The notes under the pieces: model-generated | The model's input: only the letters and a program-made list of their open reading frames with translations | Told to the model about the DNA's origin: nothing | Database searches by the model: none | Program-made: the position numbers and the translations under genes | Shown: one piece after another, positions 2,543-15,560 of the stretch | Numbering within the stretch: the stretch's first letter is position 1 | How the letters are laid out: every line of letters starts with the position of its first letter | Source of the DNA: a virus | Direction: 5' to 3' (one strand) | Length of the DNA: 18,106 nt | Virus genome (UHGV): UHGV-0176695

Positions 2543-4010
2543 CAGGAATCACTCCTTTATCGTTAGCGGCATCCGAATCGAACACCAAACCGTTTTCCCG
2601 GTTAAATTCAGTTTCACGCAGTCGCTGGCGTTTTACTTCCTGCGGTGACTGCCCACGAGCACGTATCCACTCGGCCTCCGTCCCGGCACCACCGCGAAGA
2701 ATGGCCCGCCATGCTGCAGCCTCCTTCACCGGATCAATCCACGGCATCACCGGGCCAAGATAAGTTGCGTTGAAAAGCGTGGATATATCCACATCAGGGG
2801 GAATATCAAGAAAAGGCTTTGCCTGCTCCAGCCATGCCCGGTACACCGGGCGACTGTACTGACCGACAAACCACTGCTGTAAAACACCGTAGCCTTCGTA
2901 ACCTTCCACCAGTTCCTGGCGCTGCGAACTGTAGGAGCCGTTATAGTCACGGGCAATACTGGAATAACTGCCACGGGTTCCGGCAGCCACAGCCCGCAAC
3001 TGACCGTTACGGAATTCATAAAGATGAACATTCGGGCGGTTAGACTCCACCATTCCCAGATCTTCACCGGGTGCCAGTTCGTCAAAAATCATGCCCGGCG
3101 AAATATCAAAATATCGGTTTTTTTGTTCCGGAGGTGTCCAGTCGTTATCCGTCGGAAAGCTGGCTGCATCACCGCGTTTAATGTAGAAGCCAAGCGCGGC
3201 AGCAATACGGGCAGCCACTCGCTCTGATTCTTCGTAATCTTTCAGATCTGCAATCCGGCGAATCACGCCATGTAACAGACTGACACCTCTTACTTGATGC
3301 AGGCGCTTCCGCATCGCCAGATGCAGCATGCTGTCCGCCTTAACAGTTTTGAGCTCGGCGCTGAAACCGCGCAGATTTGCAGGATGATATTTGTATACGC
3401 GATATCCTACAGGCCGCCCCCAGTTATTAAGAATTATGCCCTGACGGATCTGTTGCCCTGCATTCGTATTCAGATTAACCGGAACAAAATCTGCTTCGAG
3501 AAGCTCCAGTGATAATGGCACCACAGTGGAATGATTCAGCCCGGCGACAGGTCCGCGCACCAGCTGTACAAACATTTCGCCATCACGCAAGGCGGATCGC
3601 AGCGCCATCCGTTCAGCTTCCGGACGGGTGAACATCCCCGTCACCTCCGGGCGAACGGACCATTCAGACCACAGCGACGATATCTGCTCCGCCAGTGACT
3701 CATGAAGCGTGCCGTCGCTTCTCAGTGGTTGCGGCTCGACCTGGATCCCCTGTGCGCCAATAACCCGCTCTTCCAGCTTATCCAGCAGACCAATCACGAT
3801 ATCGTGATCTTCATCCAGCGCTCTTGCCTGTTCACGTAATGACGTCCCGGCTGCAAAAACAGCAGTATCCGCCGAACGGACTTCGCGCCGGGCCTTATTC
3901 AGGCGTGAAGGCTGCGCTGCTTCATAAGCCCTCAACAGCATTTTGTTTCTGGCACGCGAAACTGCCCACCCTGGCGCAATTGCGCCAAGTGCTTTATCAA
4001 AAAAACCCAT
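2499..4010 (-). CDS. Phage portal protein (lambda gpB-like)
   Basis: 503-aa ORF; ATG at 4010 with a GAGGA ribosome-binding site; located between the gpW-like gene and the protease-capsid gene in lambda head-gene order. Its 3' end overlaps the capsid gene start by 44 nt. Confidence 0.8.
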   Translation of the reverse strand: MGFFDKALGAIAPGWAVSRARNKMLLRAYEAAQPSRLNKARREVRSADTAVFAAGTSLREQARALDEDHDIVIGLLDKLEERVIGAQGIQVEPQPLRSDGTLHESLAEQISSLWSEWSVRPEVTGMFTRPEAERMALRSALRDGEMFVQLVRGPVAGLNHSTVVPLSLELLEADFVPVNLNTNAGQQIRQGIILNNWGRPVGYRVYKYHPANLRGFSAELKTVKADSMLHLAMRKRLHQVRGVSLLHGVIRRIADLKDYEESERVAARIAAALGFYIKRGDAASFPTDNDWTPPEQKNRYFDISPGMIFDELAPGEDLGMVESNRPNVHLYEFRNGQLRAVAAGTRGSYSSIARDYNGSYSSQRQELVEGYEGYGVLQQWFVGQYSRPVYRAWLEQAKPFLDIPPDVDISTLFNATYLGPVMPWIDPVKEAAAWRAILRGGAGTEAEWIRARGQSPQEVKRQRLRETEFNRENGLVFDSDAANDKGVIPDAANDKSASSRDDN

Positions 4011-7437: not shown

Positions 7438-7608
7438 CGTCTCCTGATATCGAAGCCCGTCGCCGCACCAGGCACTGATCAACATTTGAGTATTCGCAGC
7501 GTCAGAAAGAATTTATTTTATTGAGTAGCCACAAACACAGAATTTCATGCTTTCCGGACGCGAACGCATCCTTCATTTTTCAGCAAAATATTCTGCTCTT
7601 ACAGGCGA

Positions 7609-7791
7609 TCAATTCTGTGTGCACCGCCGAACGCCATCAATAAGCTGGCAGACCTGAGAAGCCGTATCGAAAAGCTGACGCGCCTTATCCAGGCTGACGC
7701 ACCCCACCAATAAAAAAGGCACCAGTATCGCTACCAGTGCCCATTTCGCCGCCGTTCGCGGCATTCTGTGTGTCCAGTGTTTTCGGCTCAT
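7609..7791 (-). CDS. Putative small lipoprotein (signal peptide plus lipobox LLVGC)
   Basis: 60-aa ORF; ATG at 7791 with a GGTGGTGA ribosome-binding-like element; hydrophobic N-terminus ending in the lipobox L-V-G-C, then about 30 residues with two further Cys. Tightly coupled to upstream small ORFs (TGA-C-ATG). Confidence 0.5.
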   Translation of the reverse strand: MSRKHWTHRMPRTAAKWALVAILVPFLLVGCVSLDKARQLFDTASQVCQLIDGVRRCTQN

Positions 7792-7875
7792 GTCACCACC
7801 AACGTACAGCCCAAATCAGAACAGCGACCGCCACAAGGCGAATTGCAAAGGCCGTTGCCCGAATTAAATCAGCAC

Positions 7876-8025
7876 TCATCTGTTTAAATAAATTGTTGTG
7901 TATGCAACCAGTGCGGTACAAATAATCCATGCAACTGGCGTCAGTATGTGCCTGATACCCCGGCATACCGCGATGATTTTTGCGGCATCATCAGCCCCCT
8001 GCGGAGTGGTTTCTGCTTTTATCAT
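7876..8025 (-). CDS. Putative small membrane protein with a C-terminal transmembrane segment
   Basis: Track ORF 7876..8115 begins at GTG; the best ribosome-binding site (GGAGAT, about 9 nt) precedes ATG 8025, giving MIKAETTPQGADDAAKIIAVCRGIRHILTPVAWIICTALVAYTTIYLNR. Its stop overlaps the ATG of a 28-aa hydrophobic ORF (7793..7879). Start and reality uncertain. Confidence 0.3.
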   Translation of the reverse strand: MIKAETTPQGADDAAKIIAVCRGIRHILTPVAWIICTALVAYTTIYLNR

Positions 8026-8118
8026 CAGATCATCTCCAAATTTATCTTTCGTCGTGTTAGGCTTTACTGGCATGAATGATCCCCATGCGCATTCACAAAG
8101 TGAATCCATAAACACAAA

Positions 8119-8144
8119 GCCCCGATTGCTCCAACAACCGGGGC
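8119..8144 (-). terminator. Bidirectional intrinsic terminator-like hairpin
   Basis: GCCCCG-14 nt loop-CGGGGC (plus 8119-8144), with TTTATTTTTTATTT on the plus side and TTTGTGTTT on the minus side; lies 8 nt after the stop of the 93-aa gene. Confidence 0.45.
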
Positions 8145-8152
8145 TTTATTTT

Positions 8153-8434
8153 TTATTTACTGGTATGAGTACGGCATTTAGCTATTTCATTCCGGGCTTT
8201 ACTGTCTCCGCGACAGATACAACGCACCGTGTCTCCGGTCAGCGTGGTGATGTAGGCTTCATCCGTTTTTTCCACCGAAATGCATGGTACATTTCCATCC
8301 TGGCAATACTCCACTTGGGCAGCAAGGTGAGTGTTGCGCGGGTAAAATTCCAGGCGATACATATTCCCCAGAACATGCACTTCTTCAACCTGACGCCCAT
8401 CTTCCGTTACCGTGATTTTTTTCAGTGCGTACAT
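8153..8434 (-). CDS. Hypothetical Cys-containing protein (93 aa)
   Basis: Track ORF trimmed to ATG 8434, preceded by a GGAGG ribosome-binding site; MYALKKITVTEDGRQ...; five Cys in the C-terminal half; no transmembrane segment; directly downstream of the endolysin. Confidence 0.5.
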   Translation of the reverse strand: MYALKKITVTEDGRQVEEVHVLGNMYRLEFYPRNTHLAAQVEYCQDGNVPCISVEKTDEAYITTLTGDTVRCICRGDSKARNEIAKCRTHTSK

Positions 8435-8504: not shown

Positions 8505-8882
8505 CTATCGCTTCAATTGAAAATGTGGACCGTCTTTAAGCGTCCGCCAGTCCCCGCCCCATTCGATGGCGATTCCCAGCTCTGCGGCAGCCTGCTTAAA
8601 TGCCTGTGCGATTTTCTCGTACAGAGGCCAGTCCCATGACACCTGACTGCCAACGTAAGCCACAACATCCACCGCATCACCGGTCAGGTGGCGGCTGTTC
8701 ATGGTCTGGCTTTTCCCTGCCGCAACCAGTTGTTTCTGACGATACTTACTGCGCAGGCCTTCCGTAATACCGAAATCAACCTCCGTAAGCTCCAGCGCAC
8801 GGCGAACGACAGCAACCAGCTGTGGTTTAACGCCCTCCAGATTCTTTTCGCTGCGACGACTAAATCTGAATTTACCCGACAT
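8505..8882 (-). CDS. Endolysin, peptidase M15 family (L-alanyl-D-glutamate endopeptidase type)
   Basis: ATG at 8882 with a GAGGTGA ribosome-binding site (the track start at 8888 is GTG). Contains the zinc-ligand motif S-x-H-x2-G-x-A-x-D (SRHLTGDAVD) and a C-terminal His (WGGDW...DGPHFQ), typical of VanY/M15 phage endolysins. Confidence 0.8.
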   Translation of the reverse strand: MSGKFRFSRRSEKNLEGVKPQLVAVVRRALELTEVDFGITEGLRSKYRQKQLVAAGKSQTMNSRHLTGDAVDVVAYVGSQVSWDWPLYEKIAQAFKQAAAELGIAIEWGGDWRTLKDGPHFQLKR

Positions 8883-8884
8883 AT

Positions 8885-9160
8885 TCACCTCAACAATGGA
8901 AAGATTTTTGTGACGTTCCCGCGTGCGCGTATCACCAGCACGCAGAACAGCAGGTTAAAAAACACTTCCAGCCAGCCCGTTGCTAACGGGCGACCACACA
9001 GATAGCTGAGGGGGGCAAAGGCATACAGCAGCATCAGCAGCCAGGCCAGCCATGACATCAGCGGTTTATGTCTGGAATCACGACGACGATAAAAAAAGAG
9101 CGTCAGCACGATAACCGTGCATAACGCCACATTCAGCAATCCGGGAAGGTTACTTAACAT
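8885..9160 (-). CDS. Holin or antiholin-like membrane protein (three predicted transmembrane segments)
   Basis: Track ORF trimmed to ATG 9160 behind a GGAGGAGGAGG ribosome-binding site; 91 aa with three hydrophobic segments; overlaps the upstream membrane-protein gene by 11 nt and is followed directly by the endolysin. Confidence 0.5.
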   Translation of the reverse strand: MLSNLPGLLNVALCTVIVLTLFFYRRRDSRHKPLMSWLAWLLMLLYAFAPLSYLCGRPLATGWLEVFFNLLFCVLVIRARGNVTKIFPLLR

Positions 9161-9542
9161 TGCCTCCTCCTCCACCCCGCAGACGGGAGAACAGGCTGGA
9201 CACCAGTGATGCAATATCCTGCTGGTGGATGAACGAGAGAATCTTCACCGACACCACTGACACCAGCACTGCACACAGTGCGTCGACAGGCGCACCGTCA
9301 AACCCTGTATGCTTTACCAGCCAGGATGCCAGAACCTCTGCGCCCAGCACGCCAATAATGAACGACACCAGAAAATGCGCCGCCACACGCCAGGCTGAAA
9401 GCGCCTGCGGCATCGTTGCCACAAACAACGCCCCAGCGAACGCACCAAACACAATCCCGAAATCCGTTCCGGTAAACAGCCCGAATACCGTCGCCCCGCC
9501 GAGCGCCGCAGCCGTGCCGGAACCGGATAAGGGTTCAGACAT
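9150..9542 (-). CDS. Putative holin (multi-pass membrane protein, 130 aa)
   Basis: Track ORF 9150..9680 trimmed to ATG 9542, preceded by AGGAG with a 7-nt spacer; the longer ORF would run through an upstream terminator. Gly/Ala-rich hydrophobic segments; first gene of the lysis cassette. Confidence 0.5.
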   Translation of the reverse strand: MSEPLSGSGTAAALGGATVFGLFTGTDFGIVFGAFAGALFVATMPQALSAWRVAAHFLVSFIIGVLGAEVLASWLVKHTGFDGAPVDALCAVLVSVVSVKILSFIHQQDIASLVSSLFSRLRGGGGGNVK

Positions 9543-9701: not shown

Positions 9702-10286
9702 TCAGAGATTTTCGAACGATTCCTTTTTACGACTCCAGCCTTCTATCTTCGGAAGAGATGCTTTGCCAAATTTCACCTCATTCATCGACATTAAGATACT
9801 GTCTTTGATGAACTCGCATATCTCGTTAAATTTTGCGTACGTATCTACGTGCGAAAATGTTCTGGCCTGATAACCATCAACTGAAATCGTTATGTTATCA
9901 CCATCAAGCAAAAGAATCTTTACACCGACTTTCACCCATTCCGACTGCCGCGGGTTGTCATCAATGACAGTACATAAATCAAATTCAACACCATCCTGAA
10001 GCTCAACCCTCAAATCCTCAGGTTTATTAACGTGTCCGCGCCACGATATATAAACATACGGACGTTCTTTGCCGTTAATATCACGCCACTGCGAGGCAGG
10101 CAGTTCCAGAGAATTTTCATAAACACTGACTAGCCTTTTGGCGGTATCCCGCAACCGCTGAATGTATCCCTGCTCAGCTTTCAGTATTTCGGCCCGTTTT
10201 GCCCTGATATCCACATAAGTGACCACTGTATCAATCCTCTTATGAACAAATAAACAAGCCATCATAATAACCGCCAGGGTATACAT
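9702..10286 (-). CDS. Cargo (moron) protein of unknown function; N-terminal hydrophobic anchor, coiled-coil-like segment, beta-rich C-terminal domain
   Basis: Open frame 9702..10391, but the track start is GTG and the extension runs through two terminator hairpins. First ATG after them is 10286 (MYTLAVIMMACLFVHK...). An alternative GTG about 60 nt further downstream (VVTYVDIRAK...) has a better ribosome-binding site (AAGAGGA, 8-nt spacer) and would remove the anchor. Region is clearly more AT-rich than its flanks. No family recognised. Confidence 0.5.
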   Translation of the reverse strand: MYTLAVIMMACLFVHKRIDTVVTYVDIRAKRAEILKAEQGYIQRLRDTAKRLVSVYENSLELPASQWRDINGKERPYVYISWRGHVNKPEDLRVELQDGVEFDLCTVIDDNPRQSEWVKVGVKILLLDGDNITISVDGYQARTFSHVDTYAKFNEICEFIKDSILMSMNEVKFGKASLPKIEGWSRKKESFENL

Positions 10287-10718: not shown

Positions 10719-10793
<75 letters not shown>

Positions 10794-10796
10794 ATA

Positions 10797-10872
<76 letters not shown>

Positions 10873-12636: not shown

Positions 12637-12665
12637 AATATATGCTTTTTAATCTACTTTTGCAA
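12637..12665 (-). promoter_or_regulatory. Sigma70-type promoter just downstream of the Q-like gene (candidate late promoter pR')
   Basis: On the minus strand: -35 TTGCAA (plus 12660-12665), 17-nt spacer, -10 TATATT (plus 12637-12642). The -35 overlaps the last codons of the Q-like ORF. Confidence 0.45.
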
Positions 12666-13338
12666 TACTTTGCTTTGAAAATGCCGCCTTTTGTTCCAAA
12701 CGCGTTCTCATTACCAACAATAAAGCCTCACTATCCAGCTGGTGGAAAATGTGTTTCATTGCAACCCAGTGACCAGTAAATGTTTTGGACCAGTTTTTAG
12801 TTGTCACTCCCGCCAGTAATGCCAGATCCTGGTATTCATAACCTTCCCCGCCAAAAAGTTCTGCTTTTACTGCCTGCGCCGCCAGCCAGATTAATTTTTT
12901 CAGGCGTTCCCGTGTTTTCTCTGCAATTTTCCTGTTGCCAGAATGAGCCTTAAACTCTTCCCATGCCCAGCGGGTTATGGTGACCTGATACTCCCAGCAA
13001 ATATTTCCGCTGTAACACCACAACAACCAGGTTTTATGAGGTTCTTCAAGAGACAGAACAGCCCGTCGCCATGAGGATGTCGAAAACTCAACCTGACTTA
13101 CCAGAGGAATTGACGTCCCCTTCGCCAGCGATTGTTTCCCCGGGATTGGTGGATTATCCCGCGTGATCATTTTTCCAGTCACTTCATCGCGGTACCGGAT
13201 TTTTTTACGCCTGTAACGCCCTGTATCGAACATGGCATTCTCCTGCCAGGCTTCAAGCTGACCTTTTGTTGCCCCACTCAAATCGGCGGTGGCGATAATG
13301 AGCTGCTCACGAACAAACTGTAAATACTGGTTATTCAT
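12649..13338 (-). CDS. Putative late-gene antitermination protein (Q-like)
   Basis: 229-aa ORF; ATG at 13338 overlaps the RusA stop (ATGA). Sits directly downstream of rusA and upstream of a promoter-terminator pair, the classical lambdoid Q position. Assigned by synteny and architecture, not by recognised sequence motifs. Confidence 0.45.
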   Translation of the reverse strand: MNNQYLQFVREQLIIATADLSGATKGQLEAWQENAMFDTGRYRRKKIRYRDEVTGKMITRDNPPIPGKQSLAKGTSIPLVSQVEFSTSSWRRAVLSLEEPHKTWLLWCYSGNICWEYQVTITRWAWEEFKAHSGNRKIAEKTRERLKKLIWLAAQAVKAELFGGEGYEYQDLALLAGVTTKNWSKTFTGHWVAMKHIFHQLDSEALLLVMRTRLEQKAAFSKQSIAKVD

Positions 13339-13694
13339 GCGCACTCCAGCCCTGTGATTTTTATCCCCAACCGACCACCAGGAACGACCTGACCGCGCAC
13401 AATATTAATTTCATCAAACTGCTCGTCGTCGATAAGCAACCCCGCATGTGTCAGTGCATCCAGTGGTGCTTTCAGAATATTGTCCAGGTCACGACGGCGC
13501 TTATCCGGCGGCTCTGCAATGATCTTTATCGCCAGCCTTCCGGACAGGTTTAATTTCAGCCGCTGCTGGTGAACAATAAGCGCCACATCCCGGCGATAAC
13601 GCTCACCGACTTTTGATACAAAATATGTGCTGCCACGACGTCGCCAGTAGGTGTTCACCGTCGGCGGGTAAGGCAAAACAAACTCTATATGCAT
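13335..13694 (-). CDS. rusA: RusA-family Holliday junction resolvase
   Basis: 119-aa ORF; ATG at 13694 with an AGAGG ribosome-binding site. Sequence (LPYPPTVNTYWRRRG...PDKRRRDLDNILKAPLDALTHAGLLIDDEQF) matches the E. coli RusA pattern (LPWPPSNNRYY...[23 protein letters not shown]) from memory. Confidence 0.85.
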   Translation of the reverse strand: MHIEFVLPYPPTVNTYWRRRGSTYFVSKVGERYRRDVALIVHQQRLKLNLSGRLAIKIIAEPPDKRRRDLDNILKAPLDALTHAGLLIDDEQFDEINIVRGQVVPGGRLGIKITGLECA

Positions 13695-15196: not shown

Positions 15197-15352
15197 TTAC
15201 TTCTCAGATTCGTAGTCCACGAAGACAACAACCTCCGTCTGGCCGGTTCGGATTCGTACCTCGCAGAGGTCTTTCCTCGTTACCAGTGCCGTCACTATGA
15301 CGGTTAAACAGATGACGATCAGGGCGATTAACATCGCCTTTTGCTGCTTCAT
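15197..15352 (-). CDS. hok: Hok/Gef-family type I toxin (small membrane-depolarising peptide)
   Basis: 51-aa ORF translated by hand: MKQQKAMLIALIVICLTVIVTALVTRKDLCEVRIRTGQTEVVVFVDYESEK. ATG at 15352 with an AAGGAG ribosome-binding site 9 nt upstream. Near-identical to E. coli Hok proteins from memory. It is missing from the ORF track because it is under 60 aa. Confidence 0.85.
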   Translation of the reverse strand: MKQQKAMLIALIVICLTVIVTALVTRKDLCEVRIRTGQTEVVVFVDYESEK

Positions 15353-15560
15353 AGCCTGCTTCTCCTTGACCTTTCGGTCCGTAAGAGGCTAACCTATGTT
15401 TGTGTGGCATAGATTGGGCCTCAGATTAATGTTAAGCGTCCTGCAAGACGCGTAATGTTAACTGGGGCTTTTCTCTGTCTGCCTTACAGTGGCATGCCCG
15501 AGGCAGACAGCCTCAAGCACCCGCAGCAATCTTACCGACACCGATAAGAAAACGCTATTT
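15353..15560. promoter_or_regulatory. Structured hok leader with a mok-equivalent frame and candidate Sok antisense region
   Basis: The frame upstream of and in-frame with hok reads PLTDRKVKEKQAM, matching the Mok N-terminal region from memory, but is closed by TAG three codons further upstream. Plus-strand candidate antisense promoter: TTGACC at 15366-15371 and TAACCT at 15390-15395. Hairpins at 15436-15451 and a 9-bp inverted repeat CTGTCTGCC/GGCAGACAG at 15475-15510. Confidence 0.35.

Follow-up and report, generated by a model that had tools for sequence, protein, structure and literature searches.

The stretch of DNA studied here, 18,106 nucleotides (nt) of the viral genome UHGV-0176695 and referred to below as the window, belongs to an E. 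coli prophage and contains a minus-strand lambdoid late operon extending from the gene of the Q antiterminator through the portal gene. Among sequenced phages, phiP27 (an Stx2e phage) and phiSTEC1575-Stx2k are nearest to it, two thirds of the region being approximately 92% identical. The subject of this work is a gene encoding a 60-amino acid (aa) prolipoprotein, which closes the lysis cassette of this operon. An initial annotation, made from the letters of the sequence alone, had described at this place a chain of three small open reading frames (ORFs) with no canonical Rz/Rz1 pair following the endolysin, and had suggested that the chain might be an unconventional spanin equivalent or a lipoprotein-based module of superinfection exclusion or lysis control. 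The features of the cassette needed for the argument are listed here with their window coordinates.

9150..9542, minus strand: holin-like protein, Phage_holin_8 (PF16931, E = 1.3e-22)
8885..9160, minus strand: holin, Phage_holin_3_7 (PF05449, E = 6e-22)
8505..8888, minus strand: M15 metallopeptidase endolysin (PF13539, E = 1.7e-12; phrog_465, E = 3.5e-75)
7876..8073, minus strand: small protein of 65 aa, with a 49-aa core from the ATG at 8025 (substitution pattern)
7793..7879, minus strand: 28-aa single-pass membrane peptide (PHROG matches, PGAP annotation)
7609..7791, minus strand: 60-aa prolipoprotein (phrog_7528), the last lysis gene, in the spanin slot
7707..7742, minus strand: terminator-like RNA hairpin in the lipoprotein ORF (terminator scan and folding)
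7535..7620, no strand assigned: 10-nt inverted repeat, judged not to be a functional part (repeat search)

When the ORFs and their junctions were checked, the description proved accurate for the ORFs, for both junctions (ATGA and TGA-C-ATG) and for the lipobox LLVGC. The lipoprotein ORF is reached from the 28-aa ORF through the TGA-C-ATG junction. Its product has a signal peptide (residues 1-30), a lipobox L-V-G-C in the context LLVGC and Cys31 as the predicted lipidation site; the mature protein thus consists of 30 residues, 29 of which follow the lipidated cysteine. In 28 aligned orthologs residues L28, G30, C31, C48 and C57 were invariant and the lipobox had the form L-[VAS]-G-C. The ratio of nonsynonymous to synonymous polymorphism (pN/pS) was 0.25 for the whole gene, with 0.26 for the n-region of the signal peptide, 0 for the lipobox and 0.24 for the mature part. 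Judged by these substitution patterns, the ORF is a coding gene under purifying selection. Residues 1-9 were near-invariant while Met10 was replaced by Thr, Val or Ile in many orthologs, which identifies the first ATG as the true start; the 51-aa form beginning at Met10, called by PGAP and by Kongari et al., was rejected as wrong since Met10 is not conserved.

The mature part follows the pattern C-x(3-5)-[ED]K-A-R-x-[WL]-[FL]-[GD]-x-A-x-[DEQ]-V-C-x8-C. At position +2 the members read have V, A, T, S, G or E but no D; by the sorting rule of E. coli, the absence of Asp at this position predicts that the protein is sorted to the outer membrane. The mature lipoprotein contains no proline and is roughly neutral (net charge between -1 and +3 across members), and its amphipathicity is moderate, with a hydrophobic moment of about 0.5-0.6 and shuffle p values mostly of 0.05-0.13. 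The AlphaFold2 model consists of a single helix spanning residues 12-59, with a predicted local distance difference test score (pLDDT) of 71.

The protein belongs to a narrow family. It is matched over its full length (1-60 of 60) by phrog_7528, a PHROG without assigned function (E = 2.5e-36), and clustering at 90% identity divides the family into 155 groups, every one of them from Enterobacterales, with members in prophages of E. coli, Salmonella, Citrobacter and Yersinia, including phages that carry the Stx2e and LT-II toxins. A profile search of 1.84 billion protein representatives gave 22 matches. Among those read, the members with the complete motif were lipoproteins of 54-71 aa with no extra domain and no hydrophobic C-terminus, and the longer matches were partial matches or fusions. 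Neither the lipoprotein nor the 65-aa and 28-aa ORFs matched a Pfam or NCBIfam family; there was no Pfam match of the lipoprotein to the colicin lysis proteins (PF02402) or entericidins (PF08085) at E <= 1, and a profile search of PDB sequences returned matches at chance level only.

The search for Rz and Rz1, the protein pair that usually disrupts the outer membrane during lysis, was carried out by tblastn, with four Rz proteins and lambda Rz1 as queries, and by a PROSITE-style lipobox scan. Neither method detected either protein in the window, which spans the operon from Q antiterminator to portal, in agreement with the statement of the initial annotation that a canonical pair is missing. 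No tblastn match to Rz/Rz1 was found in any of the lipoprotein-bearing loci, most of which cover 6-10 kilobases (kb) on each side, phiP27 alone having been scanned as a whole genome. The lipoprotein itself did not match the Rz1 or Rz (Phage_lysis) families in Pfam, NCBIfam or tblastn searches. In the complete phiP27 genome the lipobox scan identified one other plausible lipoprotein, a 275-aa protein of the early region; the remaining lipobox ORFs were few, short and probably spurious. In a published comparison Rz was found in 277 of 279 Stx phages, and the phiP27-like cluster C, which has two members, was the only cluster with a metallopeptidase endolysin (PMC8136144). We infer that the two Stx phages without Rz are those of cluster C, because this cluster likewise has two members and is the sole one with such an endolysin.

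The only co-occurrence of Rz/Rz1 and the lipoprotein was seen in phage GER2 (MG710528.1), where the copy of the lipoprotein gene is frameshifted and contains stop codons. About 750 nt separate this decayed copy (approximately 3488-3670) from an intact Rz/Rz1 pair upstream of it, and the copy retains a remnant of the preceding ...GTGGTGATATG junction.

To place the gene in its wider context, about 170 loci bearing the family were compared; their sources were IMG/VR, genomes of GTDB, RefSeq genomes of E. coli and the contigs that hold divergent members, and a scan of genome contigs yielded three loci only. Among E. coli genomes, 343 gave a match. In all of the compared loci the lipoprotein was the last lysis gene, followed by bor or the packaging genes, and across the loci it was preceded by four holin families and three endolysin families. 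Of the first set of loci, 87 could be evaluated for the arrangement upstream. The stop codon of an M15 endolysin was at most 25 nt from the lipoprotein start in 40 of them, and in many phages the lipoprotein gene begins 0-14 nt past the endolysin stop. A 28/37-aa transmembrane ORF stood directly upstream in 27 loci and a 48-aa relative of it together with a 44-aa transmembrane ORF in 12, whereas the window's own order (M15 endolysin, the 93-aa protein described below, 65-aa ORF, 28-aa ORF) was seen in three. Single loci had an antirepressor-like gene, an HNH endonuclease or, in phiP27, an antisense gene at this place. In two Yersinia loci (L094 and L095) and in locus L096 the lipoprotein gene begins within the end of a GH108 endolysin gene, start and stop overlapping by 4 nt. 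The divergent members, with 50-65% identity, follow M15, GH108 or NlpC/P60-like endolysins behind four holin families. A strict linkage to the Phage_holin_8/Phage_holin_3_7 pair, which had been considered, was rejected as there are cassettes with other holins. The only feature constant across the loci is the slot itself, the end of the lysis cassette.

The same slot is used for Rz/Rz1 in sister phages, which carry that pair at the exact position of the lipoprotein. In the prophage of E. coli O169:H41 (locus L003) the 49-aa and 28-aa ORFs of the window are present again and are followed, through a TGA-T-ATG junction, by a 155-aa Rz with embedded Rz1, and the DNA homology between this prophage and the window ends about 7 nt into the lipoprotein or Rz gene. 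Downstream of the lipoprotein there are genes for soluble proteins or terminase. In eight loci bor lies downstream on the opposite strand, just as in phage lambda bor comes after Rz/Rz1.

No conserved inner-membrane partner with a periplasmic domain was found among the compared loci, a result that bears on an assignment made before this work and missed by the initial annotation. In the census of Kongari et al. 2018 (BMC Bioinformatics 19:326, PMC6139136) phiP27 is listed, by computational assignment, with a "separated" two-component spanin made up of an inner-membrane subunit (i-spanin) of 64 aa and an outer-membrane subunit (o-spanin) of 51 aa. The periplasmic parts add up to 62 residues (32 + 30), the shortest total among 677 genomes, and the o-spanin is a singleton family whose 30-residue periplasmic part is 83% helix (PMC6139136). 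This o-spanin (20706..20861 of the phiP27 record) is the ortholog of the window lipoprotein, with 87% identity, called from Met10. Thus, the lipoprotein had already been flagged computationally as an o-spanin in 2018. In the RefSeq record NC_003356.1 the coding sequence L32 (20630-20861) is in the wrong frame, leaving the lipoprotein unannotated. The phiP27 i-spanin (20348..20542) begins with TTG and is antisense to a 90-aa ORF that is kept at 46% protein identity in another locus, and its segment is absent from the window and nearly all loci. It was therefore rejected as a conserved partner. The published i-spanin looks spurious, and the "shortest spanin" entry of the census was probably built on it.

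That the lipoprotein is the o-spanin of a two-component spanin, paired with the phiP27 i-spanin, a small transmembrane ORF or a holin, thus has a published listing in its favour, as well as the translational coupling of the 28/37-aa ORF in the 27 loci where it stands directly upstream. A further point on this side is a protein cluster (P0024, 89 aa, 6 contigs) in which the 28-aa ORF and the lipoprotein are fused (...RWW-C-MTRK...); judged from the junction, the fusion could have arisen by deletion of 1 nt at TGA-N-ATG and could represent either a real variant or a sequencing error. Against these stand, besides the doubtful status of the phiP27 i-spanin, the 40 of 87 loci with nothing between endolysin and lipoprotein, the lack of a holin family constant across the loci, and the occurrence of the same small transmembrane ORFs in front of complete Rz/Rz1 pairs. 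Length is also an obstacle. The predicted periplasmic tails of the small transmembrane ORFs are 9-17 residues long, and since only 29 residues follow the lipid anchor, the lipoprotein cannot bridge the periplasm even with such a tail added (fewer than 50 residues in total). Taken together, these observations make a two-component spanin unlikely. Two other proteins tried as partner were also discarded: the 195-aa ORF at 9702..10286, considered as a hidden i-spanin, had matches in only about 8 of 176 loci, and the 98-aa phrog_1935 protein, which many loci do not have, lacks a transmembrane segment.

The two small ORFs upstream of the lipoprotein were characterized by their substitution patterns and starts. 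The first ORF (7876..8115, minus strand) has 79 aa when read from a GTG, but this start is unlikely because it falls within the terminator tail in front of the ORF; preferable to it are the ATG at 8073 (65 aa), which is the one chosen by PGAP in locus L004, and the ATG at 8025 (49 aa), which is preceded by GGAG. In four distinct sequences the 49-aa core had a pN/pS of 0.16 in its own frame as compared to 0.9 and 2.9 in the other two, and by this measure the core is coding. The protein has a C-terminal transmembrane segment and gave no family match in Pfam, PHROG or NCBIfam; its 49-aa core was matched in eight loci, one of which carries Rz. The ATG of the 28-aa ORF overlaps the upstream stop codon (ATGA), and no Shine-Dalgarno sequence was found in front of it, just as the initial annotation had stated. 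A longer, 57-aa reading of this ORF (7793..7966) was rejected from the substitution patterns, as the extension falls in the frame with a pN/pS of 2.9 and is therefore noncoding. Matches to phrog_4493 (5.3e-7), phrog_3246 (1.6e-4) and phrog_1115 (0.012), all without assigned function, were confined to residues 30-57 of the 57-aa reading, i.e. to the 28-aa transmembrane core, and PGAP also annotates the 28-aa ORF. The family has variants of 28, 37 and 48 aa with the common core RAxAFAI(R/K)xVAV. The 37-aa variant has its own ribosome-binding site (GAGG), and the 28-aa form would depend on translational coupling to the 65-aa ORF.

Both ORFs appear to encode real small inner-membrane proteins whose translation is coupled to that of the lipoprotein. 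Their genes are absent from about half of the lipoprotein-bearing cassettes, and members of the 28-aa family stand directly upstream of Rz in the O169:H41 prophage, in GER2 and in PhiR12_3 (37- and 48-aa relatives in the latter two). Between lysozyme and Rz the O169:H41 prophage carries an array of four tiny hydrophobic ORFs in succession, of 34, 47, 49 and 28 aa (2236-2736); in part of this array the stop codon of one ORF overlaps the start codon of the next. The small transmembrane ORFs are thus optional and indifferent to which gene occupies the spanin slot. By analogy, their products would probably modulate events at the inner membrane. The proposal of a spanin equivalent is therefore the most plausible one for the lipoprotein, which is in the spanin position, and is not supported for the two upstream ORFs, which are found upstream of canonical Rz as well; nor do the three ORFs form one module, given that their exact order occurs in three of 87 loci and that the upstream two are missing in about half.

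A second layer of conservation was detected within the lipoprotein gene. A terminator scan identified a hairpin with an 11-base pair stem and a GNRA loop (7742-7717, followed by a U-tract, minus strand), which covers codons 17-27, inside the signal-peptide region, and folds at -23.6 kcal/mol (z = -3.25). Synonymous diversity was 0.037 in the hairpin and 0.23-0.30 in the rest of the gene, i.e. 6-8 times less, third-position entropy was 0.06 bits as compared to 0.50 bits elsewhere, and a rare Ile codon (ATA) was invariant. Every loop variant in the close orthologs is a GNRA, and five of six stem substitutions preserve pairing, two of them at the price of an amino acid change. The hairpin is nearly unaltered in a divergent subfamily whose mature part has drifted to 50-60% identity, and the decayed GER2 copy retains a legible version of it that differs at one base of the loop and one of the closing pair. 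These features make it a clear case of RNA-level selection overlaying the coding sequence of a lysis gene. The hairpin may limit full-length lipoprotein mRNA to Q-antiterminated late transcripts; alternatively, it may serve to stabilise the upstream transcript. As the most conserved stretch of the gene, recognisable even in a decayed copy, it might be thought to be all that matters, the ORF merely carrying a conserved hairpin or terminator and the peptide having no function. This is very improbable in view of the pN/pS of 0.24 in the mature part, which is 3' of the hairpin, and of the lipobox and the two cysteines, which are invariant across genera.

The inverted repeat, in contrast, showed no sign of function. 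The initial annotation had reported a 9-nt repeat; the repeat exists and is 10 nt long, with arms at 7535-7544 and 7611-7620. Eight such repeats are present in the window, where shuffled sequences had 1.9 on average and 8 at most. The repeat region folds no better than shuffles (z = -0.2), in the minimum-energy fold the right arm pairs with a different partner, and the arm overlapping the lipoprotein stop codon differs in orthologous loci. On account of the fold, the shuffle count and the unconserved arm, a role as terminator or regulatory stem was rejected.

A different kind of explanation is that the lipoprotein is a moron, a superinfection-exclusion or host-fitness lipoprotein like Bor, Cor or Llp, placed by chance at the end of the cassette. 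Small phage lipoproteins often act in exclusion or serum resistance, and the lysis-packaging interval is a known moron site, with the 93-aa protein, bor and the 195-aa ORF inserted nearby. However, a simple sigma-70 scan found no promoter-like site on the strand of the lipoprotein, and there is no room for one where only 0-14 nt separate the gene from the endolysin stop or the two overlap. This spacing and the lack of a promoter place the gene in the Q-dependent late operon; the embedded hairpin, if it terminates, would in addition halt transcripts that are not antiterminated. A PADLOC search gave no match for any of seven proteins at E <= 1, among them the lipoprotein, the 65-aa ORF and the 37-aa variant. 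Furthermore, morons come and go, whereas the lipoprotein is fixed in its slot across cassettes, including those of bor-carrying loci. A moron is improbable on these grounds, and the earlier suggestion of superinfection exclusion finds no support in the PADLOC search, the promoter scan or the late-operon location.

The remaining features of the window are as follows.

12649-13344, minus strand: Q antiterminator, at the upstream end of the late operon; a DNA methylase gene is also present
10719-10872, minus strand: tRNA-Gly(tcc) and tRNA-Thr(tgt), flanked by the methylase gene and the lysis cassette
approximately 9702..10286, minus strand: 195-aa ORF upstream of the holins, hydrophobic at its N-terminus and without a Pfam match
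8153..8434, minus strand: 93-aa soluble protein (p93; phrog_33497), between the endolysin and the chain of small ORFs
downstream of the lipoprotein gene, minus strand: 98-aa ORF (phrog_1935), before the terminase genes
downstream end of the operon, minus strand: DUF1441 small terminase, GpA-type large terminase and lambda-type portal

In related phages the tRNA site is occupied by tRNAs and by toxin genes (stx2e, LT-II). A terminator-like hairpin (9695-9674, minus strand) comes after the 195-aa ORF. The gene of p93 is flanked by two terminator-like hairpins, at 8490-8470 and at approximately 8150-8120 (minus strand), of which the latter folds at -25.6 kcal/mol (z = -6.8). The p93 gene is missing in most related loci and, together with the two hairpins, looks like an inserted moron. 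The motif CAGAATATTTTGCTGAAAAATG follows the lipoprotein stop (7574-7595, minus strand) and also the lysozyme stop in the unrelated cassette of the O169:H41 prophage (2036-2057); CAGAATATTTTGCTGAAAAATG is probably a mosaic-boundary linker of lambdoid phages. In the early region of the prophage there is a match to the sok antitoxin RNA (Rfam RF01794, 109 bits) at 15350-15522 (minus strand), and from this match the early region would carry a hok/sok-type toxin-antitoxin locus.

As a small lipoprotein in the spanin position of a cassette with no canonical Rz/Rz1, the protein is best described by the term unconventional spanin equivalent. The interpretation that we favour, although tentatively, is that this late-expressed outer-membrane mini-lipoprotein is the third, outer-membrane component of lysis and acts without a spanning partner. 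Its position, its coupling to the upstream genes and its selection are matters of observation, and a membrane-destabilising action is what we infer. In the proposed mechanism the lipoprotein would be made late, as the product of the last gene of the Q-dependent lysis cassette; following the action of holin and endolysin, the helical, lipid-anchored peptide, which may be disulfide-linked through Cys48 or Cys57, would destabilise the outer membrane from its inner leaflet, in a way resembling a colicin-release lipoprotein or a disruptin and not a periplasm-spanning complex. A more far-reaching form of this proposal is possible, if doubtful: the 30-residue lipid-anchored helix acting alone would represent a third class of phage outer-membrane disruptors and the phage counterpart of colicin-release lipoproteins, its synthesis gated by an embedded terminator that only Q-modified polymerase passes.

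Several points weigh against a disruptor acting alone. Some phages do without any outer-membrane disruptor. The positional evidence is circumstantial, and a distant or host-encoded partner of the lipoprotein may exist, given the 6-10 kb flanks of most loci; the GER2 pseudogene is one example only. The mature part is roughly neutral and only moderately amphipathic (p of about 0.05-0.1), and for this reason the lipoprotein is not an obvious membrane-active peptide like gp28 of phage phiKT. A disruptor also leaves unexplained why the basic n-region, RKHWTHRxPR, is so strongly conserved.

The conserved n-region hints at a role at the inner membrane before cleavage, as would suit a lysis regulator, i.e. 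a lipid-anchored periplasmic peptide tuning holin triggering or the endolysin in the manner of an antiholin or releasin. The tight coupling of the gene to the holin-endolysin genes agrees with this, and small membrane proteins can be essential factors at the holin level, as exemplified by Lcc6 of phage LambdaSo (bioRxiv 10.1101/2024.01.23.576932). On the other hand, four unrelated holin and three endolysin families are hard to reconcile with a specific protein-protein regulator, the lack of Asp at +2 in any member read predicts sorting to the outer membrane, and the phages would be left without any outer-membrane step. We regard such a regulator as rather unlikely, and return to the outer-membrane lysis component for the comparison with known systems.

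Lambda Rz/Rz1 is similar in its place in the late operon, after the endolysin and before bor and the terminase genes, and lambda Rz1 is, like the lipoprotein, a prolipoprotein of about 60 aa with periplasmic cysteine(s). Rz1, however, has 10 prolines, whereas the mature part of the window lipoprotein has none, is predicted to be helical and shows no sequence similarity to it; and unlike the Rz/Rz1 pair, the lipoprotein has no Rz-like partner and is too short for the periplasm. Of the features of an o-spanin it possesses the lipobox and the predicted outer-membrane sorting, but neither an adjacent or embedded i-spanin nor a bridging length. The unimolecular spanin gp11 of phage T1 is also encoded by a single gene in the spanin slot and has a lipoprotein signal. 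Its periplasmic part has roughly 100 or more residues; the lipoprotein, with 29 periplasmic residues and no C-terminal transmembrane segment, differs from this type.

Lcc6 of the Shewanella phage LambdaSo can be likened to the 28- and 65-aa ORFs by size and topology only, as a single-pass protein of less than 70 aa encoded with lysis genes; the 28- and 65-aa ORFs are dispensable in many related cassettes. With gp28 of phage phiKT, which is not known to carry a lipid anchor, the lipoprotein shares the property of being a small single protein; being lipid-anchored and roughly neutral, it falls outside the disruptins. This gp28, a small cationic protein resembling antimicrobial peptides, replaces the spanins in disrupting the outer membrane (bioRxiv 10.1101/515445), and a literature search for spanin alternatives found this disruptin as the only one. 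No spanin can be recognised in approximately 13% of the phages that infect Gram-negative hosts (PMC6139136). The papers found contain no description of the missing partner, the slot replacement or the embedded hairpin. If the lipoprotein works alone, the outer membrane would be breached without bridging of the periplasm, and the gene would provide a very small lytic module for engineering. Because the family occurs in E. coli and related hosts, complementation of lambda Rz/Rz1 amber mutants is directly applicable.

Besides the disruptin, the nearest parallels in function are the colicin-release lipoproteins (PF02402) such as ColE1 Kil and the bacteriocin release protein (BRP) of pCloDF13, which have 28-33 mature residues and make the envelope leaky. 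They share with the window lipoprotein the tiny mature part (30 residues here), an LLVGC-type lipobox and a signal peptide possibly functional in its own right; they differ from it in having no sequence similarity to it and in being encoded in plasmid colicin operons, whereas the lipoprotein gene belongs to a phage late operon.

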